A stretch of 64,000 bases of DNA, from the NCBI GenBank assembly GCA_963676835.2, contig CAXXFF010000002.1:512001-576000 (forward strand). Reading direction: 5' to 3'. The position numbers were made by a program, and so were the translations under genes. The DNA comes from Marispirochaeta sp. (lineage in GTDB: Bacteria; Spirochaetota; Spirochaetia; JC444; Marispirochaetaceae). The first letter of the stretch is position 1. Every line of letters starts with the position of its first letter. The notes below the pieces were generated by a model, which searched no databases, was not told the origin of the DNA, and was given only the letters and a program-made list of their open reading frames with translations. Shown piece after piece: positions 42,187 through 61,566 of the stretch.

Positions 42187-42194
42187 CGGTTACC

Positions 42195-43757: not shown

Positions 43758-43817
43758 ATAGTAGTTTTGCTATTGTGACGAGAGTGCTCGTGTTAATCGA
43801 GGATTTCTTATTTCAGG

Positions 43818-45067: not shown

Positions 45068-45334
45068 TCATCCACCTCGGCAGCAATTCTACGCAGTATA
45101 CTGATAATAACGTGCAAACATCTAATCACTCATTCCCTGAAGTTTCTGTCACAACATCGGAGCGACTTGGTTGTCGGTTGTTCTAACTTAACATAACCAA
45201 TTTTAAATTAAACTCAGCGGGAAGCAGTTCACCATAAACACGATTGTTTTTGAACAGAATCATGTCATTATCAAAAACCAATACTTCTTCCATAAGATCT
45301 CTGCCGTCTGAACGAAGAAAAACATCATCGCAAC

Positions 45335-45823: not shown

Positions 45824-45897
45824 GCGCAACTCCCTATACATTTTTAGTCGAAAACTGCTCCAGTAGAACTCTAACAATCCTGGCGCGAAGGAGCATA

Positions 45898-46437
45898 TTA
45901 CTTATTCTTACTCCCCAATCTATACAGAAACATTTGTGTATTTCCCGGCCTTGCTATTTCTGCTTCCAGTTTCATGCCGGCTTTAACAGCGATTTTTTGT
46001 GATATTTTATTATCAGGCTTTATTAAAGCTACTACACTATTAATTTTCTTTTCGTTGAATGCATAATTCAATAGCATTTCAGAGACTTCTGATGCATACC
46101 CGTTACCCCAATAAATCTCATCGATAACATAGATAACTTCAACTTCATCCTGGCCTTCTATACTCTTTTTCAACAAACCGCAGTGGCCGATGAGATTATG
46201 GGAAGTCCTCTCTTCCAGAATCCAAAGGTCATACTCTTCTTTAAATGGATTGTCTATATTTTCCTGTACAATAGGTTGGATTTCATTATTGTCTCTTGGA
46301 CCACCCATATATTTGGTTACCGCTGGATTGGTCCAAAGATTCACTACGAAATCTTTATCAGAAGGTACAATATTCCGTAATAACAATCGATTAGACTTTA
46401 TGCTGACAACATATTTTGCAGGTTCATTTTTTTTCAT
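45898..46437 (-). CDS. GNAT acetyltransferase (RimJ/RimL-like)
   Basis: SNRLLLR, IGHCGL, YWGNGYASE, N..S. Confidence 0.88.
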   Translation of the reverse strand: MKKNEPAKYVVSIKSNRLLLRNIVPSDKDFVVNLWTNPAVTKYMGGPRDNNEIQPIVQENIDNPFKEEYDLWILEERTSHNLIGHCGLLKKSIEGQDEVEVIYVIDEIYWGNGYASEVSEMLLNYAFNEKKINSVVALIKPDNKISQKIAVKAGMKLEAEIARPGNTQMFLYRLGSKNK

Positions 46438-46558
46438 ATCATTCTCACGCTATCTTCCGTTCTTCAGTACAGTTTAAGACTGCCTGCAGTTAAACTGTAA
46501 CAGTGTCCATCGATATAGAAGAGGCAGCAATTGTTGTTTCCTGAAACACGGATATTAC

Positions 46559-46795
46559 TTACTCTTCCGGCAAGGCCTCAAATTCTTTCTTCCTGGTTTC
46601 AAACCATTCCTGCATTTTCTGAGGCTTTTCCATTAACGCTTTCATGTCATTCATCGCCTTAAGGTGAGCCTCATCACCTTTTTGAAACATTTCCATTCCA
46701 TGATTTTTACTTAATTCGGCTATCTCTTCGAAAGTGTTTGCCTGAAAAATCTTGTTACAAGCTCCGCCAAGTTGCCTGCAGGTCATTGATTTCAT
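46559..46795 (-). CDS. DUF1059-like small protein
   Basis: MTCRQLGGAC, HG, H. Confidence 0.7.
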   Translation of the reverse strand: MKSMTCRQLGGACNKIFQANTFEEIAELSKNHGMEMFQKGDEAHLKAMNDMKALMEKPQKMQEWFETRKKEFEALPEE

Positions 46796-46921
46796 AAAAA
46801 CTCCTTCATGGAGGACATACTCTTTAAATGATATCAAACATTAAAGAAGTTGCAACCTAACATATAGCAAATAGATAAAGTTGGTCGGTGTCTGATCTTC
46901 GGGAATCGATATATCCAACGA

Positions 46922-47416
46922 CTATAGCTTCTTCTCCATACAATAAAACGGTTGTTCCCTAAACGGAAATGTCACTTCTCCGATATTCGCATACCCTTTA
47001 CTCAAATACAATTTCTGCGCAACCTTATTCGCACTGTATACATCCAATCTTACACTACTGTACTTATTCTTTCTGGCATAAGCTTCAATGAACTCCATCA
47101 GTCTACCTGCGATACCCCGGCCCTGAAAATCAGGATGAACTGCCAGCCTGTGTATAATCAGGTTCTTCCCATCCGCATCGCCCCACTTGACTTGCCCATA
47201 TTCTATTGGCTGTTCTTCGTTGATCGCAAAATAGGCCTCACATAAGTCCTCTTCTTTAATTACATATCCATATCCATTTTTTATATCTTCTTCAACAATC
47301 GCATGAGTGGGATAGTGTTCATTCCATTGATAAATCCCCTGTGATTCCATGGAAGAAATGCATTCAGAAAACATGCTCATAATTATAAGCAGATCTTGTA
47401 CTTGTGCTATGGTCAT
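46922..47416 (-). CDS. GNAT acetyltransferase
   Basis: QWNEHYP, IHRLAVHP.FQGRG, N..A..LY. Confidence 0.88.
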   Translation of the reverse strand: MTIAQVQDLLIIMSMFSECISSMESQGIYQWNEHYPTHAIVEEDIKNGYGYVIKEEDLCEAYFAINEEQPIEYGQVKWGDADGKNLIIHRLAVHPDFQGRGIAGRLMEFIEAYARKNKYSSVRLDVYSANKVAQKLYLSKGYANIGEVTFPFREQPFYCMEKKL

Positions 47417-47544
47417 TCCTATTAATCACCTCACTTGTTTCTTTTTTATACTTTTTATTGAAACACAGGGAAAACTGCACCTGTCATCCCGTGAAGTTGT
47501 TAAAGAAAATATGGGTAGAGCTGTATATCCCCTTTTTTGTATTG

Positions 47545-47997
47545 TTAATTTATGCCTTCAGCAGAATTATAATAATTGCTCACACTTTCTTTTACAAATA
47601 GATACCAATAGATGACTAAACTAAACAGAAGTGAAGGGAGTATATTTATAAGAGTGAGCAACTCATTCATTCTCAGAACCGGTAAAATAATTGATGGAAT
47701 CATATAACTACACATCATCAACAACCTTCCCCATTTTATTCTATTCAAAATTGTATACCCGCAAATTGGACAGATTATACCTGCAGCAACAAAAATCCAG
47801 GGGGCTTTTGTTTTCATAAAATCACCATAAGTCATTGCAACACCATTTACAGTGTAATTCATCCCGGGAAAAGGGATGACAGCTATTATAAACAGACTGA
47901 AACAGAGAAAACATAATGCCACTACACGCAATACAAAAGGCATAGATGCAATCTTTGATCTAAACGCCTGTATATATTCAATAATTTTGAAATACAT
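47545..47997 (-). CDS. Hypothetical membrane protein (distal cassette)
   Basis: Four TM segments, starts just after site 1. Confidence 0.6.
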   Translation of the reverse strand: MYFKIIEYIQAFRSKIASMPFVLRVVALCFLCFSLFIIAVIPFPGMNYTVNGVAMTYGDFMKTKAPWIFVAAGIICPICGYTILNRIKWGRLLMMCSYMIPSIILPVLRMNELLTLINILPSLLFSLVIYWYLFVKESVSNYYNSAEGIN

Positions 47998-48030
47998 TTT
48001 TCTCCTCGAACCAATTCTTTAGTTAATTTC

Positions 48031-48112
48031 ATACAATGTCCCACGAATAGGTGAAGTTGCTATGGGAAATTTGGGGGAAGTCACAAGCGAGACCGTGCAT
48101 TCGCTGTTGTAT
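48031..48112 (-). repeat. attC-like site 1 (degenerate)
   Basis: ATACAAT-gtccc-acgaata...cattcgc-t-GTTGTAT. Confidence 0.7.
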
Positions 48113-48130
48113 GATGTGCTTGTTAGTGTG

Positions 48131-48574
48131 CTATGCCTTTTCCAACATCCTCTTTAAATCATCCATGTCAGCAAGAAAAGCCTTCTTCATCCCACCCACC
48201 ATAAATGAAAAGAGTAAATTGAGAAGTTTCGCAGTAAAAGTAGTTGCTCTTCCGGAAAACTCAATTGAAACTCCGGTTTTACCGCCTTCATCAATAAAAC
48301 GCCATTCTGTAGCGTAGTGCATTCCGTTTGACTGCGCCTCTTCTTTGAAATAGTCGGGAGGGTTGAATTGAGTTATTTCCATTGTTTCGCTGGATTCTTT
48401 TCCAAACATGACTCGGGTTTCTTTAAACTTACTCCCTATGCCGACTTCTCCAGGTGTCAAGATTTCAATACTTTTAATGGCCTTTACGTTGTTTGCTAAA
48501 TTTTTCAGGTCAGAAAACGCATTGAATACTTCAGCCTTTTCTGCATTGATTGTGCCATGGGCTTTAACTTTCAT
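48131..48574 (-). CDS. SRPBCC/polyketide cyclase-like protein (cassette)
   Basis: GIGSKFKETRVMFGK, DMDDLKR. Confidence 0.85.
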   Translation of the reverse strand: MKVKAHGTINAEKAEVFNAFSDLKNLANNVKAIKSIEILTPGEVGIGSKFKETRVMFGKESSETMEITQFNPPDYFKEEAQSNGMHYATEWRFIDEGGKTGVSIEFSGRATTFTAKLLNLLFSFMVGGMKKAFLADMDDLKRMLEKA

Positions 48575-48667
48575 TCTGGTCTCCTTTGCTATTTTCAAAC
48601 TTAACTATAGGTATTTCTATAGAATTCAAAACTGCTTTCAGCTGTTCTGCCGAACACCGGCAGTTTC

Positions 48668-48741
48668 ATACAACATTCCGCGAAGTTGTCGAAAGCAATT
48701 TGGGTGACGCCGCAGGCGGAACCGCTTATTTGCTGTTAGGT
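48668..48741 (-). repeat. attC-like site 2 (internal deletion)
   Basis: ATACAAC-attcc-gcgaa...tatttgc-t-GTTAGGT. Confidence 0.75.
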
Positions 48742-48759
48742 GACGTTCTGTTTTTGCAC

Positions 48760-49059
48760 TTAAGATACTTTCACTTGTTGAATTTTATCGAGTTCTATTT
48801 CAATTTTTGGACGTTCAATACGCAATTCATACTCATCCTGAATTCCAAGCCAAAAATCTGGAGAGTTTCCAAAATACTTAGCTAAGCGAAGAGCAGTGTC
48901 TGCAGTAATCTTACGATTTCCCTTTAGAATTTGAGAAATTCTAGTCGCTGGCATATTTGTATCTTTTGCTAACCGATATGCACTTATGTTCATTGGACCA
49001 AGAAATTCTTCTAGGAGAATTTCTCCTGGAGTTATTACTGGGATTTTTTCCATACTCAC
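48760..49059 (-). CDS. higA: HigA antitoxin
   Basis: PGEILLEEFL, ITADTALRLAKYFG.SPDFWL. Confidence 0.93.
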   Translation of the reverse strand: MSMEKIPVITPGEILLEEFLGPMNISAYRLAKDTNMPATRISQILKGNRKITADTALRLAKYFGNSPDFWLGIQDEYELRIERPKIEIELDKIQQVKVS

Positions 49060-49343
49060 CTCTTATGGTAATCAGTTATCTCGACTTCGGTGGCTGTTCC
49101 ATTATTCCAATAAAAACAAATACGCCACTGAGAATTAATCCTTATGCTGTACTGCCCTTTTCTATCCCCTGAAAGCTGCTCAAGTCTGTTACCCGGCGGT
49201 ACCCTAAGATCATTGATGTCTTTTGATCGATGTATAAGTATTAACTTTCTTAAGCCTATTCTTTGCATTTCTTTCGGGAAATGTTTTGAATAGGTTCCAT
49301 TCCATATTTTCTTTGTGTCTTTATCTTTAAAAGATTCTATCAC
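49056..49343 (-). CDS. higB: HigB (RelE-like) toxin
   Basis: DLRVPPGNRLEQL.GDRKGQYSIRIN.QWRICF, DYH. Confidence 0.93.
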   Translation of the reverse strand: MIESFKDKDTKKIWNGTYSKHFPKEMQRIGLRKLILIHRSKDINDLRVPPGNRLEQLSGDRKGQYSIRINSQWRICFYWNNGTATEVEITDYHKR

Positions 49344-49349
49344 TAATCA

Positions 49350-49378
49350 ATAGTAACGCTTCTCGTTACTAACGTCAA
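49350..49378 (-). promoter_or_regulatory. higBA promoter/operator
   Basis: TTGACG-N17-TACTAT enclosing the palindrome TAGTAACG-N5-CGTTACTA. Confidence 0.75.
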
Positions 49379-49404
49379 GCGTTAATATATTTAAACAGAA
49401 TGTC

Positions 49405-49486
49405 ATTTAACGTTCCGCGAATATATGAAGTTGGCCGAAGGCCAATCTTTGTGAAGCGCAGCGAAACCGCCTATTCGCTGTTATAT
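49405..49486 (-). repeat. attC-like site 3
   Basis: ATTTAAC-gttcc-gcgaata...tattcgc-t-GTTATAT. Confidence 0.85.
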
Positions 49487-49532
49487 GTCGTTTGACTGTA
49501 ACCGTCAATTAAACCTCACCCAGAGAAAAAAA

Positions 49533-51053
49533 TCAGAGGGAAATATTCCATGGCAGCAATTTTTCCCAGTTATCAGATTCATTCATGAGTGGAGCTTCCT
49601 CAAAAACGCGTCTCAGGTAGTCGTTCGGGTTCACATTATTTTGTTTGGCTGTCTCAATCAGTGAATACATGGCACAGGAACTTTCTGCCCCCTTTGGACT
49701 ACCGGAAAATAACCAGTTCTTTCGGCCCAGAACAAACGGCCGAATAGCCTGTTCCGCGCTATTGTTGTCAGGTGTCAGATAAGGAGAATCGAGGTAGTGT
49801 ACCAGTTTCTCCCATTCGTTCAAGGTGTACTGAATTGCTTTCCCAAGCAATAACGAAGGAGGAACCTGCTGACTGCGTTTTTCAAGCCAGGTTCTAAACT
49901 TCTGCAAAACCGGTTCCGCCTGAGATTTGCGCTGGTCAACAAACTGGTCTTCGGGCAATTCCATACTGCGAAGACGCTCTTCAATTCCATACAGTTTCCT
50001 GATGGCATTCAATGCTTCCTGTGCACTTGCTGCTTTCTTCGAGGCCTTTGCAGCTTCATGAAACTTTCGCCGAACATGGGCCATGCAGCCGACATGGACT
50101 ATCTGTTCATTCCCCGCCAGGGCTGTACGATACGCATCATAGCCGTCGGTCTGTAAAAAGCCGCTGAATCCATCGAGAAGTTCTTTAATATGCCGGGACC
50201 CGCGGGTTTCCCGGTATGAATAAAGCAATCCCGGGTTTTCCGGAGGGCCGCCGCGGGCAAGCCACATATAGGATTTCGCCGTGTCAGGGCGTTCCGGTTC
50301 TCCGTGTACCTGGACCGGGGTTTCATCCATGTTGATGACCGGCCCTGACCGGATATGCGTTTTCAGTGTTTCTATTAACGGTTCAATTTTATCAAACGCC
50401 GCCTGCTGCCAGTTGCTCATGTTCTGACGGCTTATGTGGATGCCGATTCTTTCAAACCGTTTCTCCTGCCGGTAATAGGGCAGATGATCGACAAACTTGT
50501 TCACTATGATGAAGGAGATCAATCCTGGCGTTACAATGCTTTTAGGGATAATACTTGCAGGGGGATCAGCAACCCTTACCGCCGGCTTCTCTTCATCCCC
50601 GGAGCCTTCACAGTTTTTACAGGCATACTTGGGGCGGATAATCCGTTCCACCCACATCTTCGGGGGGATTACCTGTAAGCGCTCGCTGGTCTCTTCGCCG
50701 ATACGAACCAGCGCATGGCCGCAGGCACACTGTTTTTCTTCTTCGGGAATATCAATGATGATCTCATCCCGGGGAAGGCTTTCATCAATTGGTTTTCTGC
50801 CGGATTTCCTGCGGGGATGGGACTGAACTGGTACGGAAGTCTCTGATGCATCGTTCTCCGAAGTACCATTCTCTTCAAGTCCGAACAACAGCGGTTGATA
50901 CTCATCCAGTTGTTCTTTTTCACTTTTACGGCCAAATTTCTGAAGAAGAAGCAATTTGTACTGCTCTTCCAAGGCACCATAACGCTGCTCCCAGGAACTA
51001 TTAAGTTCGTGGATATAGTCCTGTACTTCCCTGGGAAGTTCTGTAACATCCAT
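49533..51053 (-). CDS. tnpC: IS66 DDE transposase (outer)
   Basis: Zn-finger, KFVDHLPYYRQ, DET, TDGY, CMAHVRRKF, NN.AE.AIRP, GRKNWLF. Confidence 0.95.
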   Translation of the reverse strand: MDVTELPREVQDYIHELNSSWEQRYGALEEQYKLLLLQKFGRKSEKEQLDEYQPLLFGLEENGTSENDASETSVPVQSHPRRKSGRKPIDESLPRDEIIIDIPEEEKQCACGHALVRIGEETSERLQVIPPKMWVERIIRPKYACKNCEGSGDEEKPAVRVADPPASIIPKSIVTPGLISFIIVNKFVDHLPYYRQEKRFERIGIHISRQNMSNWQQAAFDKIEPLIETLKTHIRSGPVINMDETPVQVHGEPERPDTAKSYMWLARGGPPENPGLLYSYRETRGSRHIKELLDGFSGFLQTDGYDAYRTALAGNEQIVHVGCMAHVRRKFHEAAKASKKAASAQEALNAIRKLYGIEERLRSMELPEDQFVDQRKSQAEPVLQKFRTWLEKRSQQVPPSLLLGKAIQYTLNEWEKLVHYLDSPYLTPDNNSAEQAIRPFVLGRKNWLFSGSPKGAESSCAMYSLIETAKQNNVNPNDYLRRVFEEAPLMNESDNWEKLLPWNISL

Positions 51054-51114
51054 GCTAATAAGAATTCTAGCATGCCGTACATTCTATGTAAATTCCTTTA
51101 CACCAATAATATGC

Positions 51115-51462
51115 TTACGAAACCCGCGAATATTCCAAACTAGTATGTTCATTCCAAAAATCGATGCCTTTCAACAGCATCGATAGCTGTTCCGGGGTAA
51201 TCATACGTGCAGTTTCTTCGGTTACGGGCCAGGGAAACTTATGCTTTTCCAGTTTCTTCTGCCAGAGACAGAATCCGTTCTTGTCCCAGTAGAGGGCTTT
51301 CATAATTCGTCGTTCGCGGTTGCAGAACAGAAACAGATTGCCGCTTAACGGATTTTCATTCATATAGTCCTGCACCATGACAACTAAGCCGTTGATTGCT
51401 TTACGCATATCAGTGATGCCTGGCCGGATAAATATCTGTACCGCTGATAAATCTGGGGTCAT
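51115..51462 (-). CDS. tnpB: IS66 accessory protein (outer)
   Basis: TDMRKAINGL, LYWD.NGF.LW.KKLE. Confidence 0.95.
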   Translation of the reverse strand: MTPDLSAVQIFIRPGITDMRKAINGLVVMVQDYMNENPLSGNLFLFCNRERRIMKALYWDKNGFCLWQKKLEKHKFPWPVTEETARMITPEQLSMLLKGIDFWNEHTSLEYSRVS

Positions 51463-51693
51463 TCATAAACCCTCAAGGCTGTTAATACTGCTTTAAGCTG
51501 GTCATGGTTTGCTGTTACCGGCAGAGTAATAACAATATCGTGCAACTTTATGGTAATGGTTTCTTTTTTGGATAAATGATGAAAAGAGCTTTTTACTGGT
51601 ATGAACCCGGCTGCTGCTGTTTCAGAAGCTAATCCTGTTTGTACGGCACGTTTCCTTTGTAACCGTCAATTAAACCTCACCCAGAGAAAAAAA

Positions 51694-53223
51694 TCAGAGG
51701 GAAATATTCCATGGCAGCAATTTTTCCCAGTTATCAGATTCATTCATGAGTGGAGCTTCCTCAAAAACGCGTCTCAGGTAGTCGTTCGGGTTCACATTAT
51801 TTTGTTTGGCTGTCTCAATCAGTGAATACATGGCACAGGAACTTTCAGCCCCCTTTGGACTACCGGAAAATAACCAGTTCTTTCGGCCCAGCACAAATGG
51901 CCGGATGGCCTGCTCCGCGCTATTGTTGTCCGGCGTCAGATAAGGCGAATCAAGGTAGTGTACCAGTTTCTCCCATTCGTTCAAGGTGTACTGAATTGCT
52001 TTCCCAAGCAATAACGAAGGAGGAACCTGCTGACTGCGTTTTTCAAGCCAGGTTCTAAACTTCTGCAAAACCGGTTCCGCCTGAGATTTGCGCTGGTCAA
52101 CAAACTGGTCTTCGGGCAATTCCATACTGCGAAGACGCTCTTCAATCCCATACAGTTTCCTGATGGCATTCAATGCTTCCTGTGCACTTGCTGCTTTCTT
52201 CGAGGCCTTTGCAGCTTCATGAAACTTTCGCCGAACATGGGCCATGCAGCCGACATGGACTATCTGTTCATTCCCCGCCAGGGCTGTACGATACGCATCA
52301 TAGCCGTCAGTCTGTAAAAAGCCGCTGAATCCATCGAGAAGTTCTTTAATATGTCGGGACCCGCGGGTTTCCCGGTATGAGTAAAGCAATCCCGGGTTTT
52401 CCGGAGGGCCGCCGCGGGCAAGCCACATATAGGATTTCGCCGTGTCTGGGCGTTCCGGTTCTCCGTGTACCTGGACCGGGGTTTCATCCATGTTGATGAC
52501 CGGCCCTGACCGGATATGCATTTTCAGAGTCTCAATTAAAGGTTCAATCTTTTCATACGTCATCTGCTGCCAGTTGCTCATGTTCTGACGGCTTATGTGG
52601 ATGCCGATCCGCTCAAATCGTTTCTCCTGCCGGTAATAGGGCAGATGATCTACAAATTTATTCACTATGATGAAGGAGAGCAATCCAGGCGTTACAATGC
52701 TTTTAGGGATGATACTTGCAGGGGGGGCAGCAACCCTTACTGCCGGCTTCTCTTCATCCCCGGAGCCTTCACAGTTCTTGCAGGCATACTTGGGACGGAT
52801 AATCAGTTCTACCCACATCTTCGGGGGGATTACCTGTAAGCGCTCGCTGGTCTCTTCGCCGATACGAACCAGCGCATGGCCGCAGGCACACTGTTTTTCA
52901 TCTTCGGGAATATCAATGATGATCTCTTCCCGGGGAAGGCTTTCATCAATTGGTTTTCTGCCGGATTTCTTGCGGGGATGGGACTGAACTGGTACGGAAG
53001 TCTCTGATGCATCGTTCTCCGAAGTACCATTCTCTTCAAGCCCGAACAACAGCGGTTGATACTCATCCTGTTGTTCTTTTTCACTTTTACGGCCAAATTT
53101 CTGAAGAAGAAGCAACTTGTACTGCTCCTCCAAGGCACCGTAGCGATGTTCCCAGGAACTGTTTGCTGTCTCAAGAGAGTGAATGTAGTCTTGTACTTCC
53201 TTCGGAAGGGCTGCAACATCCAT
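51694..53223 (-). CDS. tnpC: IS66 DDE transposase (inner)
   Basis: Near-identical to outer tnpC. Confidence 0.95.
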   Translation of the reverse strand: MDVAALPKEVQDYIHSLETANSSWEHRYGALEEQYKLLLLQKFGRKSEKEQQDEYQPLLFGLEENGTSENDASETSVPVQSHPRKKSGRKPIDESLPREEIIIDIPEDEKQCACGHALVRIGEETSERLQVIPPKMWVELIIRPKYACKNCEGSGDEEKPAVRVAAPPASIIPKSIVTPGLLSFIIVNKFVDHLPYYRQEKRFERIGIHISRQNMSNWQQMTYEKIEPLIETLKMHIRSGPVINMDETPVQVHGEPERPDTAKSYMWLARGGPPENPGLLYSYRETRGSRHIKELLDGFSGFLQTDGYDAYRTALAGNEQIVHVGCMAHVRRKFHEAAKASKKAASAQEALNAIRKLYGIEERLRSMELPEDQFVDQRKSQAEPVLQKFRTWLEKRSQQVPPSLLLGKAIQYTLNEWEKLVHYLDSPYLTPDNNSAEQAIRPFVLGRKNWLFSGSPKGAESSCAMYSLIETAKQNNVNPNDYLRRVFEEAPLMNESDNWEKLLPWNISL

Positions 53224-53285
53224 ACTGAAAAAAATTCTAGCATACAGCTCTTTCTCTGTAAATTCCTTTACACCATTAAAATGCT

Positions 53286-53633
53286 TTAAGAAACACGGGA
53301 ATATTCCAAAGTAGTATGTTCATTCCAGAAATCGATGCCTTTCAACAGCATCGATAGCTGTTCCGGGGTAATGGCAAGAGCATCTTCTTCAGTTACGGGC
53401 CAGGGGAATTTATGCTTTTCCAGTTTCTTCTGCCACAGGCAGAAACCATTCCGGTCCCAATACAATGCCTTCATGATTCGTCGTTCGCGGTTGCAGAACA
53501 GAAACAGATTGCCGCTTAACGGATTTTCATTCATATAGTCCTGCACCATGACAACTAAGCCGTTGATTGCTTTACGCATATCAGTGATGCCTGGCCGGAT
53601 AAATATCTGTACGGCTGATAAATCTGGGGTCAT
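53286..53633 (-). CDS. tnpB: IS66 accessory protein (inner)
   Basis: As outer tnpB. Confidence 0.95.
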   Translation of the reverse strand: MTPDLSAVQIFIRPGITDMRKAINGLVVMVQDYMNENPLSGNLFLFCNRERRIMKALYWDRNGFCLWQKKLEKHKFPWPVTEEDALAITPEQLSMLLKGIDFWNEHTTLEYSRVS

Positions 53634-53959
53634 TCATAAACCCTCAAGGCTGTTAATACTGCTTTTAGCTGGTCATGATTTGCTGTTACCGGCAGAGTAA
53701 TAACAATATCGTGCAACTTTATGGTTATGGTTTCTTTTTCGGATAAATGATGAAAAGAGCTTTTTACTGGTATGAACCGGGCTGCTGCTGTTTCAGAGCC
53801 TATTCCGGTTTGTACGGCACGTTTCCTTTCGGCTTTTTTCCAGCTGTAAAACGTTGTGGGTGGTATTTCGTGCTGCCGGCAATACTCCTGCCCGCTTAAC
53901 CCGCTTTTTTCCCAATTTCTAAGATGTTCACACTGCTGTTCCCGGTTATATTTGACCAT
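53630..53959 (-). CDS. tnpA: IS66 HTH protein (inner)
   Basis: WEKSGLS..EYC..H.I...TFYSW, FIPV. Confidence 0.9.
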   Translation of the reverse strand: MVKYNREQQCEHLRNWEKSGLSGQEYCRQHEIPPTTFYSWKKAERKRAVQTGIGSETAAARFIPVKSSFHHLSEKETITIKLHDIVITLPVTANHDQLKAVLTALRVYE

Positions 53960-54232
53960 GCGATTCCTCCATTAAGGGAGGATTGTAGGGCATTCATTGA
54001 TGTCGGCATAAGGTGGGGTTTAATTGACGGTTACTTTCCTTTCGGCTTTTTTCCAGCTGTAAAATGTTGTGGGTGTTATTTCGTGCTGCCGGCAATACTC
54101 CTGCCCGCTTAACCCACTTTTTTCCCAATTTCTAAGATGTTCACACTGCTGTTCCCGATTATATTTGACCATGCGATTCCTCCATTAAGGGAGGATTGTA
54201 GGGCATTCATTGATGTCGGCATAAGGTGGGGT

Positions 54233-54652
54233 TTAATTGACGGTTACGTTTGACTCTTGCACCCAGTTTTCAATGATCAGTTTGGGTACTCTCTCAAATT
54301 CCTTTACATTATTTGTAACAAGACATAAGTTTCTTGTTACACACTGTGCGGCTATTTGGAGATCATATGGCCCAATTGGGGTACCTAATTTATTTAGATA
54401 AGCACGTATATACCCGAAGTTCTCAGCGTCTAATTCACTAAAAGGGATAATTTCAAAAGGAGACAGAAATCCATATAGTAATTCCCTATTTCGATCAGGA
54501 TATAAACTTTTTGCTATTCCATACTCCAGTTCAGCTATAGTAATTGAAGAAAGAGCAATATTAAACAACTCTTCATCCTCTATCCTGATTTGAAGTTCGG
54601 GATATTTCTTTTTCATTAAATAAATACAAATATTTGTATCAAGTAAATACAC
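54233..54652 (-). CDS. vapC: VapC PIN-domain toxin (last codons supplied by IS66 end)
   Basis: YLLDTNICI, GPYDLQIAA, LVTNN..EF.RV. Confidence 0.92.
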   Translation of the reverse strand: MYLLDTNICIYLMKKKYPELQIRIEDEELFNIALSSITIAELEYGIAKSLYPDRNRELLYGFLSPFEIIPFSELDAENFGYIRAYLNKLGTPIGPYDLQIAAQCVTRNLCLVTNNVKEFERVPKLIIENWVQESNVTVN

Positions 54653-54882
54653 TATATACTTTCCCGTTCTTGCATTTCGGGCTGCTCTCTCCCTTCCGAG
54701 AATAAATCATCGGAAAACATATTTATACTATTTCTAAAAGAAGACCATAAATCATCTTTTGAAGTTAGAATAATAGAGCTTCCTACTTTATGTATAAGGA
54801 GCTCCGAATCAGAAATCGCATATTCTTTTGGGATTCTAATAGCTTGGCTATTGCCACTTCGGAATACTTTTACCGTTTGCAT
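54652..54882 (-). CDS. vapB: VapB (AbrB-type) antitoxin
   Basis: KVFRSGNSQAIRIPKEY. Confidence 0.92.
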   Translation of the reverse strand: MQTVKVFRSGNSQAIRIPKEYAISDSELLIHKVGSSIILTSKDDLWSSFRNSINMFSDDLFSEGREQPEMQERESI

Positions 54883-54902
54883 ATTTTATGCCTCCTGCAT
54901 CA

Positions 54903-54931
54903 AGTATATACCTATGTGTATACATTTTCAA
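54903..54931 (-). promoter_or_regulatory. vapBC promoter/operator
   Basis: TTGAAA-N17-TATACT overlapping the imperfect palindrome GTATATAC-N4-GTGTATAC. Confidence 0.7.
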
Positions 54932-54943
54932 GAGTCAAATGAC

Positions 54944-55038
54944 ATATAACGTCCCGGGGTTATGTGACGTACGGCGTAAGCCGTATGTGGCGCAGCCCGA
55001 GGAGCGTATAGCGACGAAGCACATAGCCCCTGTTATAC
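54944..55038 (-). repeat. attC-like site 4
   Basis: ATATAAC-gtccc-ggggttatgtg...cacatagcccc-t-GTTATAC. Confidence 0.88.
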
Positions 55039-55052
55039 GACGTTTCATATAT

Positions 55053-55460
55053 CTACCTTTGAGCAATTATTTCTTTTACAAACTCTTTTGAAAAATCGTA
55101 TTGCTCAGAGTTTTCCACCTCAAATTTTATATTATATCCTTCCGAATATTTTCTGGCGGTTGATACCATTTCTTTATATTTTACCATATCCTCTTTAGAC
55201 TCAAAATATTCTTTTTCATTTTTTCTAATAGCCATACTCAGAATAAAGGAATCGTTCAACGGAATAAAATAGTAAAGTGCTTTTTTCTTATCTTCTACTT
55301 TTTCCATCCAGCCACTCGATCTTGAATGATTCCAGGTGTGTTGAAAATCTTTTGTCAATTTATTTAAATCTTGATAATATTCGGAAACAACACCGAGTGC
55401 TTCATTTATTTTTTCGTTTGTAGGTTCATTCGATTTTTCTTTAAACGGTCTTTCACTCAC
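55053..55460 (-). CDS. DUF3788-like protein (cassette)
   Basis: PT...I..ALG, SGW..K..KKKAL.Y.IP, YSEG. Confidence 0.65.
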   Translation of the reverse strand: MSERPFKEKSNEPTNEKINEALGVVSEYYQDLNKLTKDFQHTWNHSRSSGWMEKVEDKKKALYYFIPLNDSFILSMAIRKNEKEYFESKEDMVKYKEMVSTARKYSEGYNIKFEVENSEQYDFSKEFVKEIIAQR

Positions 55461-55491
55461 TTTTTACTCCATTTTAGATATGTGATATGTC

Positions 55492-55637
55492 GTATAACGT
55501 GATGCGAATATGCGAAGATATTCGCTGAAATTATACTATCATGTTTGTCCATTAGAACAAACATGATTTTTGTAAAATGCAAGAGCGGATATTTTGAGCG
55601 AAGGCTGAAAGCCGTAGCCGCATATTCGCAGTTAGTA
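55492..55637 (-). repeat. attC-like site 5
   Basis: GTATAAC-gtgat-gcgaatatgcg...cgcatattcgc-a-GTTAGTA. Confidence 0.88.
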
Positions 55638-55659
55638 GAAGTGTTTAATTTTTTTATAA

Positions 55660-56106
55660 CTATAATTCGTTTGTTCTACCAAAAGCAAAAGTTGCTTTTG
55701 ATGTGTATTTTGCAGAAAACCCTTTCATTTCTGAATCCATGGCTTGATCTAACATTATTATTGCATTTGCACCTTTTGTTTTAGCATAATCCTTCAATAA
55801 TTTATAATACTCAGAAGCATCTGGTTGCTTATAATTCATATTGAACCCTGATAATTTGTTCGTTGTATTTATTGTGATCATTCCAATTTGATTGTATTTA
55901 AAAGAAGGTGGTATTAACATATTAGAATGATATGCAACGGCTGAATCAACCGCTAATGCAGGATAAACTTTACCTGTTGGTATATACAATTCTTCTAAAT
56001 CAGTCATTGTATAATCTGATACATTACTTTTTTCTTTGTTTGTAGATGTTGTTACACATCCCAATAATGTTAATAAAAGTACTAAAATTAAAATTAACTT
56101 TCTCAT
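55660..56106 (-). CDS. Hypothetical lipoprotein (cassette)
   Basis: Lipobox LLGC, AKTKGANAII (YbjQ-like). Confidence 0.7.
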   Translation of the reverse strand: MRKLILILVLLLTLLGCVTTSTNKEKSNVSDYTMTDLEELYIPTGKVYPALAVDSAVAYHSNMLIPPSFKYNQIGMITINTTNKLSGFNMNYKQPDASEYYKLLKDYAKTKGANAIIMLDQAMDSEMKGFSAKYTSKATFAFGRTNEL

Positions 56107-56185
56107 GGTCACTCCTTAATTATTAATAAATTATTTATAGCAAAATTTCTTCTTAAAATCAATATTCTATAATTTTAAACACTTC

Positions 56186-56445
56186 TACTAACGTTCCGCG
56201 AATATATGAATTTTCTATCAAAAACACGGGTTTATTTTCAATATAACGCCGTTTTCTGCTGCAGACCGTGAAATTGGCGCAGAATGTGCGTAAGCAGATT
56301 CTGTGACAATAGGGCTGACAGTAGCAAAACATGGTTATATTGTCGTTTATTATAGCATGTAAATTGTTTATTTCGGAACCAATTCTTTTTGATAGAAATT
56401 TGGCGAAGCCCGGAGCGAAGCGGAGCATATCATTCGCTGTAAAAC
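56186..56445 (-). repeat. attC-like site 6 (260 bp, long internal insert)
   Basis: TACTAAC-gttcc-gcgaatatatg...catatcattcgc-t-GTAAAAC. Confidence 0.8.
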
Positions 56446-56473
56446 GAAGTTTTCTTGGGGGCGCGTACAATAA

Positions 56474-56890
56474 TTAATGCTGATGTACGAAGCTGTTAAT
56501 AAAATTTCCATCCATATCAAAAACAATGTCGAATGTATCAGGATCAATTCCATACCCAGTCCACCAACCTATTGAATATAATAATATATCTCTCTCTTCT
56601 TCATAATCATTGATAAAGGCATCCTCTGGTTCTCCTAAGAGTTCAATTGTTTCTAGTTTATTTAATTTTTTCTCATTCAAAATACTTTGTAGTGATTCTA
56701 CCATTTTCCCGCGATCATTATCGGTGCCCCAGTTTCCAGCATTTTCCTTCCAAACCACTTCATTAAAAGGGAGATCATCGAAAATATTTCCACCTTTTGC
56801 AATGTAGGAGACACAACTAGAAAAAATTAGAGTTGCGAAGAATATCAGAAAAACTGAAATGTTGTTCCTATGCGTAAAGATCGTTTTCAT
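56474..56890 (-). CDS. Hypothetical lipoprotein (cassette)
   Basis: Lipobox FSSC, RGKMV..L, IELLGEP. Confidence 0.7.
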   Translation of the reverse strand: MKTIFTHRNNISVFLIFFATLIFSSCVSYIAKGGNIFDDLPFNEVVWKENAGNWGTDNDRGKMVESLQSILNEKKLNKLETIELLGEPEDAFINDYEEERDILLYSIGWWTGYGIDPDTFDIVFDMDGNFINSFVHQH

Positions 56891-56918
56891 TTTGAAAAAT
56901 ATCCCCCAAGAAAATTTT

Positions 56919-57009
56919 GTTTAACGTTCTGACAATATATGAAGTCTACCACGGAGTGGGAGATTTGGCGAAGCCCGAAGCGAAGCGGAGCATATATTGT
57001 CTGTTAGAA
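56919..57009 (-). repeat. attC-like site 7
   Basis: GTTTAAC-gttct-gacaatatatg...catatattgtc-t-GTTAGAA. Confidence 0.88.
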
Positions 57010-57063
57010 GTAGTTACATCCTGCCATTGCATAATAAATAAACCGAAAGGAAAACACTAAGAT

Positions 57064-57513
57064 TTAATACAGTGGTTCAAACTGCTTATTCTCGGGATTC
57101 CAGAAATATACACGAGCATTATTAATGAAGTTTTTCCCTTCATTTGTGTAGACTGATAACTTTAAAGTTATATCGTCTCCTATTTCAATTTTATACCCAT
57201 AGAAGACTGAATCTCGACGCATTGGCACTTTGTGAGGATCTTTGCTCCAATAGTCTGTAATCATCTCTTTCTCAATTCTAAAAACTTCATGAATAGATCT
57301 GGAGCTCGTAGAAAGGATTAGCATTTGGTCAAAAAAAGTTTGACTATCGTCAATGTAGTGGAATCCGAAATATAAACCCTGAGGTTCGAAGGAGGTGATA
57401 ATGAACTCTTTTTCATTAAAAAAAGATTTCATTTCATCGTCAATTGACTCAGAGAATGAAAAATATGAAAAACCTAAAAGAAAAACTAGCGTGATGAAAT
57501 ATTTTTTTGACAT
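57064..57513 (-). CDS. Exported hypothetical protein (cassette)
   Basis: Signal peptide, bounded by sites 7 and 8. Confidence 0.65.
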   Translation of the reverse strand: MSKKYFITLVFLLGFSYFSFSESIDDEMKSFFNEKEFIITSFEPQGLYFGFHYIDDSQTFFDQMLILSTSSRSIHEVFRIEKEMITDYWSKDPHKVPMRRDSVFYGYKIEIGDDITLKLSVYTNEGKNFINNARVYFWNPENKQFEPLY

Positions 57514-57550
57514 GTACATCTCCATAACCAATTGAAAAGGATGTAATTAC

Positions 57551-57640
57551 TTCTAACGTTCCGGGTTTATATGACGTTTTTGCAACGCAAAAATGTGGCG
57601 TAGCCCAAGCCGAAGGCGCAGCATATAAACCCTGTTATAC
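57551..57640 (-). repeat. attC-like site 8
   Basis: TTCTAAC-gttcc-gggtttatatg...catataaaccc-t-GTTATAC. Confidence 0.88.
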
Positions 57641-57660
57641 GATGGTTTTTGGTTCAGTTG

Positions 57661-57942
57661 TCAGGCCTTCTGAATTTTCCAAACTGAATCCTTTAATTCC
57701 CTATATGCTTCCATACCAGGACTGAGATCAGAAATATCATTTATTGATGAATCAATATTCAAAGCTTCTTGCATACTGATCACACGGCCATCTTCTGTAT
57801 TATTAGTTGTTCCACAAAAAAATCCCCAAGAATGATCATCCTCATAGTGCACAACTTTTAAAATGGGATATCCTTCTTCAAGCACTTGCTTTGTGGTAAT
57901 TGCAGCAGTATTTGGCGATTGATCAAAATTCCATTTATCCAT
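57661..57942 (-). CDS. DUF2185/immunity-like small protein (cassette)
   Basis: VVHYEDDHSWGFFCG, ID.SI..I.DL.PG..A.R. Confidence 0.6.
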   Translation of the reverse strand: MDKWNFDQSPNTAAITTKQVLEEGYPILKVVHYEDDHSWGFFCGTTNNTEDGRVISMQEALNIDSSINDISDLSPGMEAYRELKDSVWKIQKA

Positions 57943-57983
57943 CAGCATACCATTTCTATAAAATAAGTTTTCCAAAAACTATC

Positions 57984-58134
57984 GTATAACGTCTCGCCAA
58001 TATGCGAAGTTGCCTGGCACCCCATCGGGGTTGATAAATGCTGGGAAAATTGTAGCACGGTTTTTCCGGCATTTGTCAAAGGCAATTTGGGTGCAGTGAG
58101 CAAAGCGAACGGAACCGCATATTGGCTGTTATGC
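57984..58134 (-). repeat. attC-like site 9
   Basis: GTATAAC-gtctc-gccaatatgcg...cgcatattggc-t-GTTATGC. Confidence 0.88.
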
Positions 58135-58336
58135 GAAGGAATCAGACTTTTATTCCTGCTCACACCAGCGTCGTTCTTGCCGGGTGCGACTGCACCTTAA
58201 TGAAGCCTTCCACTTGGACGGTCTTTATTACGCATTGCGTATTAATTCCCGGCCCGCGCAACTCTTTAAAAAGCAGGAATTACGACACCATTTTTAATGG
58301 TGCGACTATATATCCCCACTGATTCTTTCGCATAAC
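58128..58336 (-). other. ORF-less first cassette with multiple stems (candidate ncRNA or regulatory cassette)
   Basis: Bounded by an 18-bp IR, no credible ORF, several inverted repeats. Confidence 0.6.
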
Positions 58337-58352
58337 TACACTTATCCGCATT
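58325..58352 (-). promoter_or_regulatory. attI-like / dif-like primary recombination site
   Basis: TTTCGCATAA-CTACAC-TTATCCGCAT. The last cassette end is not followed by an attC core; the site abuts the integrase. Confidence 0.7.
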
Positions 58353-58373
58353 GTACATTAAGTTCCCCATTAT

Positions 58374-59222
58374 ATGAAGCAACATAATACTTCTGCGGTT
58401 ATTATAAGTATGAGCACTACATATATTGAGAAAATAGCCAGAGAAATGCAGGATCATATGATCTTCCGTAACTATTCACGCCACAGCATTACAGCATACA
58501 TTTCTCACATTCGATCATTTCACAACTTTTGCAGCAATACCAGTGAATCCAACCGCGAAAAACGTATCATTGCGTATATAAATCAATGTCCCCACTCAAG
58601 CAGGACAGTGGCGCGGTCGGCCTTGAAATACCTCTATGTAAATATCCTGAAAATCCCGGTTTCCATTTTAGATGTTAAGGTGCGTCATAGCCAAAAAATC
58701 CCCCCGGTTTTATCACGAGCCGAGGCTATCAGTCTTATCAACTCCATTACAAATTGTAAGCACCGTCTTATGATCGCCCTTTTGTATGGATCAGGATTAA
58801 GGGTAAGCGAAGTTGTCAATTTGAAAGTTGGAGACGTACTTCTTTCGCGTCAAAAGCTTCATATCAGGCAGGCGAAGAACAAAAAAGACAGGATTGTAGT
58901 CCTGTCCGCAGAATTGATGCCCCAGATAATTAACGATATAGCCGGCAGATCACCGAAAGAGTGGCTGTTCTTAAATCAATCTGGAAAGAAATATGCTATC
59001 CGGACAGTTCAGGCTGTTTTCAAAAAAGCCCTTCACAAGTGCAATCTCAACAGAAATGCCAGCTGTCATTCCCTCCGCCATTCGTTTGCAACATCACTGC
59101 TGGAAAATGGTGTGGACATAAGGCTTATACAGGCTCAACTTGGGCACTCAAATCTCAAAACAACCATGCGCTATACAAGGATTTCCGGAGCTATGATTGA
59201 AAATCTTCAATCTCCTTTATAG
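58374..59222 (+). CDS. Tyrosine recombinase (integron-integrase-like, lacking IntI insertion)
   Basis: N-terminal RNYS.HSI.AY, then YGSGLRVSE, K.KKDR, HSLRHSFAT, LGH, TTMRY. True start may be 58410. Confidence 0.9.
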   Translation: MKQHNTSAVIISMSTTYIEKIAREMQDHMIFRNYSRHSITAYISHIRSFHNFCSNTSESNREKRIIAYINQCPHSSRTVARSALKYLYVNILKIPVSILDVKVRHSQKIPPVLSRAEAISLINSITNCKHRLMIALLYGSGLRVSEVVNLKVGDVLLSRQKLHIRQAKNKKDRIVVLSAELMPQIINDIAGRSPKEWLFLNQSGKKYAIRTVQAVFKKALHKCNLNRNASCHSLRHSFATSLLENGVDIRLIQAQLGHSNLKTTMRYTRISGAMIENLQSPL

Positions 59223-59385
59223 CAATTATTACGCAATGCGCAAAATATGCTTCTGTATACAAATCTTTTTGCATAGAGTACAATAAGGTTGAATTAATAC
59301 CAGAAAATAATACTGCCTTAGGCCTGCCGAAGTTTACCTGTTTATTTAACCCTAATGGTGGTAAATTTAGTGAGAGAGTTTTTTT

Positions 59386-61566
59386 ATGCTTTCACGCAAA
59401 GTGATTGTCACATGCTGTTCTCTTTTCTGTGTACTCTCTATATTCACATACGCACAGAGTACCGCAGTAAATCTTGACGAAATGTATGCTTACCCTCTGG
59501 GGTTTTCCGTGGATATCTCAAGTTATTCGCCTGTTGTGGCCCTGGGCACAGATTTTGATTACACCTTCAGTGTTAACGATTTCTCAGCAAAAGCTACATA
59601 TCCATTGCCGCAGCATCCGGTCTGGCAGCCCTATCTTTCTCTGGGCCTGATTTCCTACACATCAACAGATACCGAAAACGAAGCTCAGGCAGATCAATTT
59701 AACCATAATCAGGCATATCTTTCCGGTGGAATTTCCTATCTTACAAAGATGTCAAAGCAGATGGAAATCGGAGTGAGTACCGGCCTTGGGTTGAGTCAAT
59801 CCTATTTTTCAGAATTAGGTGGATCAACGGATACTGTCGGGCAGATGAATCTGCTTGCAGATTTAAACGGCCACCTTGGCCTGAATGTATCTTATAATCT
59901 GCATCTGGCCTTCGAACCGCGAATCCGCTATACAAAAACATTCGGACTTTTAGAGCGCTTTAACGGCGTAACCTTCGGTGTTGGGTTTACCGGCCAATAT
60001 CGTCTTGGAGAAGATCCGGACTCTCCCAAAGCTGAAATTAAGAGTATCCGCTTTCTTGACGGAAAAATCTCCAATATATTTGCAGCTCTTCAGAGTTTCT
60101 ATGTAAACAACAGCATCGGGTCAGTTGCATTCGTAAATGAAGACAAATTTCCCATAACCAACGTGGAAGTCTCTTTTTATCAGGCCGGGTTTATGGATAC
60201 CCCTACACTGCTTAAATCCTTCGATAAAATCGATTCAAAAGAAGAACAGTCTCTCGATATCTTCGCCGCCTATAACACCCGGGTATTTGAAACCGCTGGA
60301 ATCACACCACTTACCGGTGAGCTGGTTGTAGCATATACAAGCCGGGGGCGCAGCTATACTCAGAAACTCCCTCTTACCTATGATATGTACGACAAAGAGG
60401 CCCTTTCCTGGGATGACACACGTAAAGCCGCGGCCTTTGTTACTCCCGCAGACAGTGCCCTCAGAAACTACAGCAGCTATGTTCGCCAAATTTCCAGAGA
60501 ACGAAATATTACCGGCTACAGCGAAGAGATGCAGACCGCCATGCAGATCTATTACGGCCTTAAGGAACTCGGACTTATTTACCAGCTCGATCCAACCAGC
60601 CCCTTTGATCAGGCCCAGGAAAACACCGGCGTAATCGATGCAGTCAGTATTCCGCGAAACACCCTTAAACGACTTACCGGTGACTGTGACGATCTATCTG
60701 TACTCTATTCAAGTCTGCTTGAATCCGCTGGAGTTGAAACCGCCTTTGTAACTGTACCGGGACATATATACGTGGCGTTTAATACAACCGTACCTTCACG
60801 GGATTATCAACTGCTCCATCCATCCCAGAAGATGTCCATAAATATAAAAAATCAGCTCTGGGTTCCTGTGGAAGTAACCATGGTTGGCACCGACGATTTC
60901 TTAACCGCCTGGCGAACCGGTATTCAGCAGTTTACATCTCTGGACAGCAATCCTGATCAGCGGGAAATTATCAATATCCGCCAGTCCCAACAGACTTACC
61001 GGGCAGTGGGGCTTCAGGAAACCGACCTGGGCCTGCAGTACGGAGACTCCCAGACAGTAGCCCGGAACTTTTCCCGGGATGTAAATCAGGTAATCAACGA
61101 AATTATCCAGTCTTACAGTACCATTGCTGAGGAGACAAATAACAAAAGCGGTTTCAACCGGCTGGGAATTGTCAGCGCCATGTTCCGCCGCTACAGCGAA
61201 GCAGAACAGGCATTTAACCGAGCCCTGGCTCTGGACCGGAATTTTCTTTCCGCCCGGATAAATCTTGCAAATGTCTACTTTCAGCGCAATGAATATCAGA
61301 ATGCTCTGCGTATTCTCCATGCGGTGGAAAAGGAATATATTGCCAGCGGCAGAGAACAGTCCCGCAGTCTGCAGATTGTGCTTCTGAACATTTCCCGCTG
61401 TTACTATTCGCTGGAAAACTTCGATATGGCCGAAGATTATCTGGCAAGGCTTAAAGAACTGAACCCGGATCTTGCAAATCAGAACTCGTATCTTGCAGCC
61501 CAGAACGGATCCCGGGCTTCCCGCGGTGGAGCCGATTCGGGTGTTTTGTTTGTGGAGGAAGATTAA
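59386..61566 (+). CDS. Exported protein: beta-barrel-like N-terminus, transglutaminase-like core, TPR C-terminus
   Basis: Signal peptide, alternating beta strands, GDCDD...PGHIY...VPVE, TPR repeats. Confidence 0.7.
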   Translation: MLSRKVIVTCCSLFCVLSIFTYAQSTAVNLDEMYAYPLGFSVDISSYSPVVALGTDFDYTFSVNDFSAKATYPLPQHPVWQPYLSLGLISYTSTDTENEAQADQFNHNQAYLSGGISYLTKMSKQMEIGVSTGLGLSQSYFSELGGSTDTVGQMNLLADLNGHLGLNVSYNLHLAFEPRIRYTKTFGLLERFNGVTFGVGFTGQYRLGEDPDSPKAEIKSIRFLDGKISNIFAALQSFYVNNSIGSVAFVNEDKFPITNVEVSFYQAGFMDTPTLLKSFDKIDSKEEQSLDIFAAYNTRVFETAGITPLTGELVVAYTSRGRSYTQKLPLTYDMYDKEALSWDDTRKAAAFVTPADSALRNYSSYVRQISRERNITGYSEEMQTAMQIYYGLKELGLIYQLDPTSPFDQAQENTGVIDAVSIPRNTLKRLTGDCDDLSVLYSSLLESAGVETAFVTVPGHIYVAFNTTVPSRDYQLLHPSQKMSINIKNQLWVPVEVTMVGTDDFLTAWRTGIQQFTSLDSNPDQREIINIRQSQQTYRAVGLQETDLGLQYGDSQTVARNFSRDVNQVINEIIQSYSTIAEETNNKSGFNRLGIVSAMFRRYSEAEQAFNRALALDRNFLSARINLANVYFQRNEYQNALRILHAVEKEYIASGREQSRSLQIVLLNISRCYYSLENFDMAEDYLARLKELNPDLANQNSYLAAQNGSRASRGGADSGVLFVEED

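Follow-up and report, generated by a model that had tools for sequence, protein, structure and literature searches.

The closest described systems to the locus reported here are the sedentary chromosomal integrons, for example that of Vibrio cholerae with its integrase VchIntIA, in which the recombinase gene is divergent from the array, an attI site carries a G|TT crossover, and co-oriented, promoterless, single-gene cassettes end in AAC...GTT imperfect palindromes (attC sites) that are conserved in structure over sequence. Toxin-antitoxin cassettes, low G+C and species-specific content are further features of such arrays. The same features are found in a 64,000-nucleotide stretch of the genome of Marispirochaeta sp. 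(contig CAXXFF010000002.1, positions 512,001 to 576,000; referred to below as the window), in which a tyrosine recombinase gene stands divergent from nine cassettes co-oriented on the minus strand, each closed by a related hairpin site termed type-S in this study. Unlike the recombinases of sedentary chromosomal integrons, however, the recombinase here lacks about 43 residues of the insertion that characterizes the integron integrase (IntI) and stays below the cut-offs of that family.

The additional domain is treated in the field as the definition of an integron integrase and as a need for the use of folded attC sites, and detection tools split off integrase-less clusters by it. In passages of Ghaly et al. 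(2021, 2022) and Néron et al. (2022), IntI is defined by this domain. Cury et al. (2016) found attC sites near 50 recombinases devoid of the IntI region, of which 29 came from genomes with an IntI elsewhere. Four of the 50 were placed between IntI and Xer, and none of these four had as many as three attC sites; such proteins were stated by the authors not to be IntI. The I2 helix and the extrahelical bases of attC are presented as an example of coevolution, and a chicken-and-egg paradox is posed, in sections of Escudero et al. (2016; PMC4792948). No published integron-like system with an insert-less integrase was found, and no description of integrons was found for bacteria of the candidate phyla radiation (CPR), in a literature search whose coverage was thin for subscription journals and which left the supplements of Cury et al. 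(2016), with their recombinase tree, outside. By the rules of IntegronFinder, the array would be an attC-site cluster that has no integron-integrases (CALIN) if the attC model sees its sites, the neighbouring recombinase having no intI_Cterm region. Unlike a CALIN, however, it has at its head a recombinase that is conserved and related to IntI, together with an attI-like site, so that it can hardly be said to lack its recombinase.

On the comparative evidence given below, which is drawn from sequence, we consider it reasonably probable that the array is a chromosomal integron-type gene-cassette platform, that its short recombinase is a relative of IntI without the I2 insertion, and that the type-S sites are distinct attC-like hairpins. 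The preliminary description of the window had proposed an integron-equivalent gene-capture platform with a different recombinase clade and different sites, and the missing insertion, the clade, the site family and the variable gene order all lend support to that proposal.

The short recombinase and its relation to IntI and Xer

The recombinase had been described as a 282-amino-acid (aa) protein with the full catalytic set of a tyrosine recombinase. The catalytic set was confirmed, with R143, K168/K171, H232, R235, H258 and Y267 invariant in an alignment of 14 relatives, and the reported spacing from KDR (171-173) to HSLRH (232-236) is exactly 58 residues. The protein itself is probably shorter. 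The ATG at 58374, which opens the longest open reading frame (ORF), is kept in 2/6 genus genomes, and the codon of M13 (58410) is kept in all six; therefore translation probably starts at M13 and gives a protein of 270 aa, which is also the length of the database copy (P0001). With a start at 58410, the attI-like block falls entirely upstream of the gene.

The protein matched the Pfam family Phage_integrase (3e-39). It scored under the cut-offs of the integron-integrase models (TIGR02249, 177.4 vs 265 bits; NF011946, 112.7 vs 435) and also under those of the Xer models (XerA_Arch, 192.9 vs 220; XerC, 142.2 vs 335; XerD, 131.8 vs 330), XerA_Arch being its best NCBIfam model. As had been claimed, the IntI insertion is missing: about 43 residues of the IntI-specific region (I2 helix region, KxxR hairpin to HxxR) are absent. 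The best sequence match among solved structures was VchIntIA (2a3v), which was matched in two pieces that skip the insertion, with 21 residues in the present protein against 64 in VchIntIA, and the alignment with the canonical IntI of the same genome has 46 gap positions at the insertion. When 22 short-clade sequences were aligned with 6 canonical IntI, both parts of the insertion were missing from all 22. The closest fold to the predicted structure model (mean predicted local distance difference test score 85.2) was again 2a3v (E 7.8e-16), followed by archaeal XerA (9.2e-15).

A quick maximum-likelihood tree of 63 sequences, rooted on Escherichia coli XerC/XerD and with archaeal XerA left out, placed the short forms, their CPR relatives and IntI in one group apart from Xer, with a Shimodaira-Hasegawa-like approximate likelihood ratio test (SH-aLRT) value of 100. 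The Xer-like genes of the same genome and E. coli XerC/XerD were split from the short recombinase by a branch of SH-aLRT 100. Canonical IntI, including IntI1 and IntI3, formed a single clade (SH-aLRT 100), around which the short forms made up an unresolved grade. The short recombinase thus lies outside the canonical IntI clade, in agreement with the different clade that had been proposed. In size, domain layout and the absence of the IntI insertion it resembles XerC/XerD, which act at dif, and archaeal XerA, from which it differs by its sub-threshold Xer scores and the SH-aLRT 100 split, and by standing at a multi-kilobase cassette array rather than a single dif site. XerCD can act on the single strand of phage CTX in its folded form, so the use of a hairpin substrate is not strictly dependent on I2.

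N-terminal extensions were observed in some relatives. Those with downstream, co-directional arrays (loci L060, L062, L063, L066, L068, L069, L071 and L072) have about 90 additional aa in which they share an RKWD...W.IP motif, and sub-threshold Pfam HARP matches were obtained for this extension in two of the four that were scanned (E 3e-4 and 5e-3). A second group of relatives, with divergent arrays, has a different N-terminal extension, and the protein of the window has none.

Type-S sites, cassette units and the crossover

Read in the direction of the cassette ORFs, the sites have the form YNTAAC-A-[11-nt inner arm]...[complementary inner arm]-RRAAC-GTTA. A covariance model (R1) was built from the nine sites of the window and, when run over 24 kb with its filters off, it returned exactly nine sites on the minus strand (60-85 bits); the opposite strand of the same places scored only 8-16 bits, and the sites therefore have a clear polarity. 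The nine related sites reported earlier were thereby recovered, with modelled lengths of 83-269 nucleotides (nt) in place of the 74-260 given before. The six sites nearest to the recombinase are well formed and the three distal ones are decayed (S8 is truncated, the GTT of S9 has become ATT, and a remnant lies beyond). An Rfam scan of 44000-59400 at E<=1 found no family for the sites and gave two unrelated matches at chance level only.

For the analysis of structure, 53 sites from the window and 13 other loci were aligned by fitting them to the model, a procedure which favours pairing. In this alignment 94.1% of the stem cells were paired, against 74.2% after shuffling and 17-48% in slid controls, and 133 double-sided changes were counted against 34 in shuffled sites; neither value was attained in any of 500 shuffles. 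Many pair types occurred at 8/10 positions of the inner stem, which is not explained by the fitting of the alignment to the model. The spacers flanking the inner stem were asymmetric, 1 nt vs 5 nt, in all 53 sites, and the inner stem carried a single extra base in 9 of them and none in the other 44. In all nine sites of the window the more stable fold was that of the strand opposite to the ORFs, with an outer stem, a one-sided bulge of 4 nt and an inner stem of 11 bp. The outer stem, of about 14 bp, contains a fixed wobble: at a position about 10 nt from the GTT, the ORF strand has A.C and its complement G.T. The comparison shows that it is the predicted structure, rather than the sequence, that is conserved in type-S sites. 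In contrast to the type-S arrangement (AAC, 1 nt, inner stem; inner stem, 5 nt, GTT), four attC sites of a class 1 integron that were read have 5 nt on the AAC side and 4-5 nt on the GTT side; canonical attC sites combine symmetric spacers with flipped-out bases, whereas type-S sites have a one-sided bulge of 4-5 nt and mostly an uninterrupted inner stem.

The boundaries of the cassettes could be deduced from their ends. The 14 nt after a GTT matched the reverse complement of the 14 nt before the AAC of the next site at 10.4 positions on average (n=45), compared with 5.4 within sites (n=54) and 5.5 +/- 1.9 for random pairs, and this complementarity extends beyond the window to its genus mates, to distant spirochaetes and to CPR loci. 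A block upstream of the recombinase gene is conserved in all six genus genomes as far as GTAG|TTA, beyond which the sequences diverge completely. The 10 nt from the G of this junction, where cassette 1 starts, are the exact complement of the 10 nt that end in the AAC of S1. The attI junction and the layout of the first cassette place the crossover at the GTT end, as in integrons; a crossover at the AAC end was considered and ruled out, since these two features fit only the GTT end. Taken together, these alignments show cassettes as discrete units and map the putative crossover to G|TT of the sites and of the attI-like block. A promoter scan of the attI region gave one promoter-like site against 1.1 expected, which is not significant alone.

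Recombinase-site pairing, distribution and cassette turnover

A classical integron with its own site type is also present in the same genome. It lies on another contig (C3:3503-29100 of genome G000, loci L009 and L011) and consists of a 419-aa canonical IntI (355.6 bits against a cut-off of 265; 40% identical to IntI1) accompanied on the opposite strand by 20 or more sites, about 175 nt in length, that belong to a second type. Even with its filters off, R1 matched neither these IntI-associated sites nor the attC of class 1 and class 3 integrons, so the sites of the window are distinct, as had been suggested. We rejected the view that the sites of the array are simply borrowed from the canonical integron, since the other array uses a different site type. 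Standard models could miss the type-S sites.

Each of the five genus genomes compared has both systems (on one contig in G004 and G005), with a canonical IntI in all five genus mates. In 5/5 of these genomes R1 located type-S sites immediately next to the short recombinase and on the strand opposite to it, and a second model (R2), built for the other site type, found its sites directly beside the canonical IntI in the five that were searched. Outside the genus, short-clade recombinases (34-46% identity) were found in 42 of 401 genomes of the phylum and canonical IntI matches in 44 (42 over the cut-off), with both in only 3; 39 of the 42 genomes with a short-clade gene thus have no canonical IntI. 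R1 sites occurred within 10 kb of the short gene at 15/24 loci tested. In four of five complete genomes that carry the short clade and no IntI, sites adjoin the gene over spans of 3.5, about 27, about 29 and about 70 kb. Five complete genomes with an IntI, in which no short gene was found, served as a control: type-S sites were absent from three of them, one carried two beside a frameshifted gene and the last carried two orphans. Two layouts were seen, namely divergent upstream arrays, as in the window, and co-directional downstream ones. R1 also matched at 10/80 loci from other genomes, including two Peregrinibacteria, one Patescibacteria and one Thermodesulfobacterium metagenome-assembled genome (MAG). 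None of five MAGs checked, Peregrinibacteria, Patescibacteria and Thermodesulfobacterium among them, held a match over the IntI cut-off, which for MAGs does not prove that IntI is absent. The co-occurrence search that had been advised with a covariance model of the nine sites returned matches within the genus, in the phylum and elsewhere. These genome comparisons show that recombinase type and site type go together and that the short type occurs without IntI, and the evidence favours the short enzyme as the platform's own putative recombinase.

The frameshifted gene (L172 12129-12964, in G216) belongs to the short clade and has its two type-S sites downstream, with the canonical IntI about 1 Mb away.

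Cassette order had been suggested as a further point of comparison, and it proved not to be invariant. The flank of the platform is syntenic with that of the nearest species at 76.7% nucleotide identity, and only the higBA cassette is common to the two arrays, at 93%, the shared block ending at the flanking GTTs. The other genus genomes have no cassette in common with the window, except for a distant vapBC pair, so that the content beside the orthologous recombinase is almost wholly different across the five genus genomes.

Public sequencing data, with no RNA data set listed, were limited to three contig-level runs from one study, as assembled contigs only. Comparison of these contigs with 54250-61600 revealed five site-to-site joints with sides of 22-67 nt and depths of 2-7, against about 16. 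Because the sides are short, the joints may come from repeats or from other organisms, and they were not counted as excision. In run X1, the segment 54742-55233 (S6 and the end of the DUF3788 cassette) had a depth of 66 vs 16, about fourfold, with variant contigs, which suggests further copies or relatives in that sample.

Several observations touch on the relation between the two arrays. The loop of S4 (56238-56344) contains an element that matches the IntI-associated site type with 62.8 bits and gives S4 the look of a composite site. In the canonical array, a BrnT/BrnA-like cassette occurs twice (L009 8864-10075 and 12636-13620), flanked by the two mutually complementary halves of one type-S site, a layout suggestive of a circle that bore a nested site and was opened at the other type of site. 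G004 has this cassette too, in its type-S array (90% over 740 nt). Such composite sites may reflect cassette traffic between the two systems, or alternatively homologous recombination between those parts of the sites that are conserved. Other cassettes of the canonical array on C3 hold vapBC, PLD-like and lipoprotein genes; the array is interrupted by IS21 and IS3 insertion sequences, and further clusters of the second site type were seen at C4:336373-342093 and C1:3483-9013, with no integrase nearby. Fuzzy motif searches of the genome were also made, of which the first set was too permissive and a tighter set served as leads only.

The features of the platform are listed in Table 1. The array has a G+C content of 32-35%, compared with about 48% in the flank beyond 60 kb. 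Nine cassettes, one of them ORF-less, had been reported, and the ORFs, the Pfam matches and the site model agree on this number and orientation. The earlier labels stood for the SRPBCC, higBA, vapBC, DUF3788, exported and two lipoprotein-like cassettes, with Pfam naming the products as SRPBCC, HigB/HigA, VapC (PIN) with a MazE/AbrB-type antitoxin, and DUF3788, whereas the DUF2185-like label rests on a weak match of the cassette 2 ORF to Imm33, formerly DUF2185 (E 0.014; 15.6 bits against a cut-off of 25.4). Four small exported or lipoprotein-like ORFs have no Pfam family, and a Pfam scan of the cassette ORFs at relaxed thresholds gave sub-threshold hints only, for four ORFs.

Table 1 Features of the type-S cassette platform in the window
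Feature	Position	Strand	Remarks
Short IntI-like tyrosine recombinase	58374..59222	+	282-aa ORF; conserved start probably 58410 (270 aa); no IntI-specific insertion
attI-like site	58334..58380	-	Block kept in six genus genomes, ends GTAG|TTA (G = 58336); TGTAYAAT -10-like motif directed into the array
Cassette 1, ORF-less	57990..58335	-	Site S1 57981-58140
Cassette 2	57557..57989	-	104-aa ORF 57661-57975 (weak Imm33/former DUF2185); site S2 57548-57646
Cassette 3	56925..57556	-	155-aa exported protein 57064-57531; site S3 56916-57015
Cassette 4	56192..56924	-	138-aa lipoprotein-like ORF 56474-56890; long site S4 56183-56451
Cassette 5	55498..56191	-	150-aa lipoprotein-like ORF 55660-56112; site S5 55489-55643
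Cassette 6	54950..55497	-	DUF3788 protein 55053-55460; site S6 54941-55044
Cassette 7	49411..54949	-	vapB 54652-54882, vapC 54233-54652; site S7 49402-49492; two IS66 copies between genes and site
Cassette 8	48674..49410	-	higB 49056-49343, higA 48760-49059; truncated site S8 48665-48747; cassette also in sister species
Cassette 9	48037..48673	-	SRPBCC protein 48131-48598; site S9 48028-48118 (GTT decayed to ATT)
Possible decayed tenth cassette	47480..48036	-	Membrane ORF 47545-47997, then remnant of site inner motif

Three elements were absent from the preliminary description: the canonical integron on the other contig, the possible decayed tenth unit, in which R1 did not detect a site (about 47480-48036), and the IS66 copies within the vapBC cassette. 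Two tandem IS66-family copies occupy 49498-54247, between vapC and S7. Each carries TnpC and TnpB, the second also TnpA, and they are followed by a duplicated end of 213 bp (53822-54034 and 54035-54247), with terminal repeats at 49498-49520, 51659-51681, 54012-54034 and 54225-54247. Just past the decayed end of the array, the segment 44400-47420 contains five ORFs in the orientation of the cassettes, four of them GNAT acetyltransferase-like and one small, with no site detected between them; these may be very old cassettes or ordinary flank. Further left, at 41500-44000, there is an IS21-like element (IstA/IstB, about 50% G+C), and a near-identical IstA start was found in the canonical-IntI array on C3 (L009 2583-4894).

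Proposed mechanism, competing explanations and implications

If the array is an integron-type platform served by its short recombinase, the strand complementary to the ORFs would fold into an outer stem of about 14 bp in which a G.T wobble is fixed, a bulge of 4 nt on one side only, beside the crossover, and an inner stem of 11 bp. The short recombinase would then join this hairpin to double-stranded attI by a single strand exchange to be resolved by replication, as in integrons, and the bulge and wobble would provide the asymmetry of strand and orientation that is given in classical integrons by the flipped-out bases and the I2 helix. We infer that the recombinase acts on the folded strand and that bulge and wobble stand in place of the extrahelical bases and the I2 helix.

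Some of the observations weigh against this interpretation. The best conserved stretch of the sites, RRAAC|GTTA, holds a palindrome (AACGTT), which makes a double-stranded reaction possible, and the canonical IntI in this genome makes service of the array in trans possible. No R1 site was found at 9/24 loci with a short gene, but contig ends interrupt several of the nine, and G405, in which the short gene is present and IntI is not, gave no type-S match in a whole-genome search at E<=0.01. Type-S clusters with no short recombinase nearby were found in G004 (592-603 kb) and several times in G005, and G338 has two orphan sites. The tree, quickly built and without archaeal XerA, leaves the branching order of short forms and IntI unresolved. 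Furthermore, no recombination event was seen in the public contig-level runs, where the joints are ambiguous with short sides of 22-34 nt.

The short recombinase could be the cognate enzyme and nevertheless act in the manner of Xer, with two strand exchanges on double-stranded DNA and no folding, on a core formed by the 3' half of the site (inner arm, 5-nt spacer and GTTA arm). Such a reaction would suit a protein without the domain that integron integrases use on folded sites, it would agree with the palindrome and with the GTTA that sites and attI have in common, and even IntI is capable of double-strand reactions according to part of Escudero et al. (2016). However, the sequence of the inner stem is free to vary while its complementarity is kept, with double-sided changes in 8/10 pairs, as is predicted by a folded substrate and not by a sequence-specific double-stranded arm. 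The outer arm is specific to each cassette, and the fixed A.C/G.T position and the one-sided bulge are meaningful only in a folded strand. A double-stranded reaction is therefore regarded as unlikely. The other question is whether the short recombinase serves the array at all, because the canonical IntI of the genome and of all five genus mates could service an ordinary cassette cluster in trans, in which case the adjacent short recombinase would be an Xer-like gene that serves some other function. The type-S clusters away from any short recombinase fit this explanation, as do the hybrid sites, which indicate some traffic between arrays. It is made very unlikely by the pairing and by the genomes without IntI: adjacency, orientation and the attI-like junction are kept beside the short gene in 5/5 genus genomes, in which the sites flanking the canonical IntI are always of the other type; 39/42 short-clade genomes of the phylum have no canonical IntI, four complete ones among them with sites beside the gene; and of the complete IntI-only genomes 3/5 have no type-S site and one more has its sites beside the frameshifted short gene.

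The decay of S8, S9 and the remnant, the IS66 copies within the array, the two toxin-antitoxin cassettes and the frameshifted gene of one relative would also be expected of a fossil platform, that is, a once-active system whose recombinase function has been lost and whose array is retained by its toxin-antitoxin cassettes. Against this, the ORF is intact and all catalytic residues are invariant among the aligned relatives, the six recombinase-proximal sites are well formed, and cassettes have been turned over between species in a syntenic flank, with one cassette closer between species (93%) than the flank itself (76.7%). We therefore give the fossil explanation only a slight chance.

Turning back to the platform served by its own short recombinase, the locus suggests a second, overlooked kind of integron. 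A more tentative idea, which we regard as possible and rather doubtful, is that insert-less recombinases with bulged, wobble-marked sites are the older form of integron, within which canonical IntI would have arisen by gaining I2 together with the flipped-out bases of attC; the two forms would coexist in this genus, each keeping its own sites and exchanging cassettes by way of composite sites, in which a site of one type is lodged in the loop of the other. If the interpretation as an integron-type platform is true, part of the attC clusters now filed as integrase-less may have an overlooked integrase of their own, and integron-type gene capture would extend to groups such as the CPR bacteria. 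The joint origin of the I2 domain and the extrahelical bases of attC would then become testable with natural enzymes and sites, for which this genome, with both systems in one chromosome set and with distinguishable sites, would be a convenient test bed.

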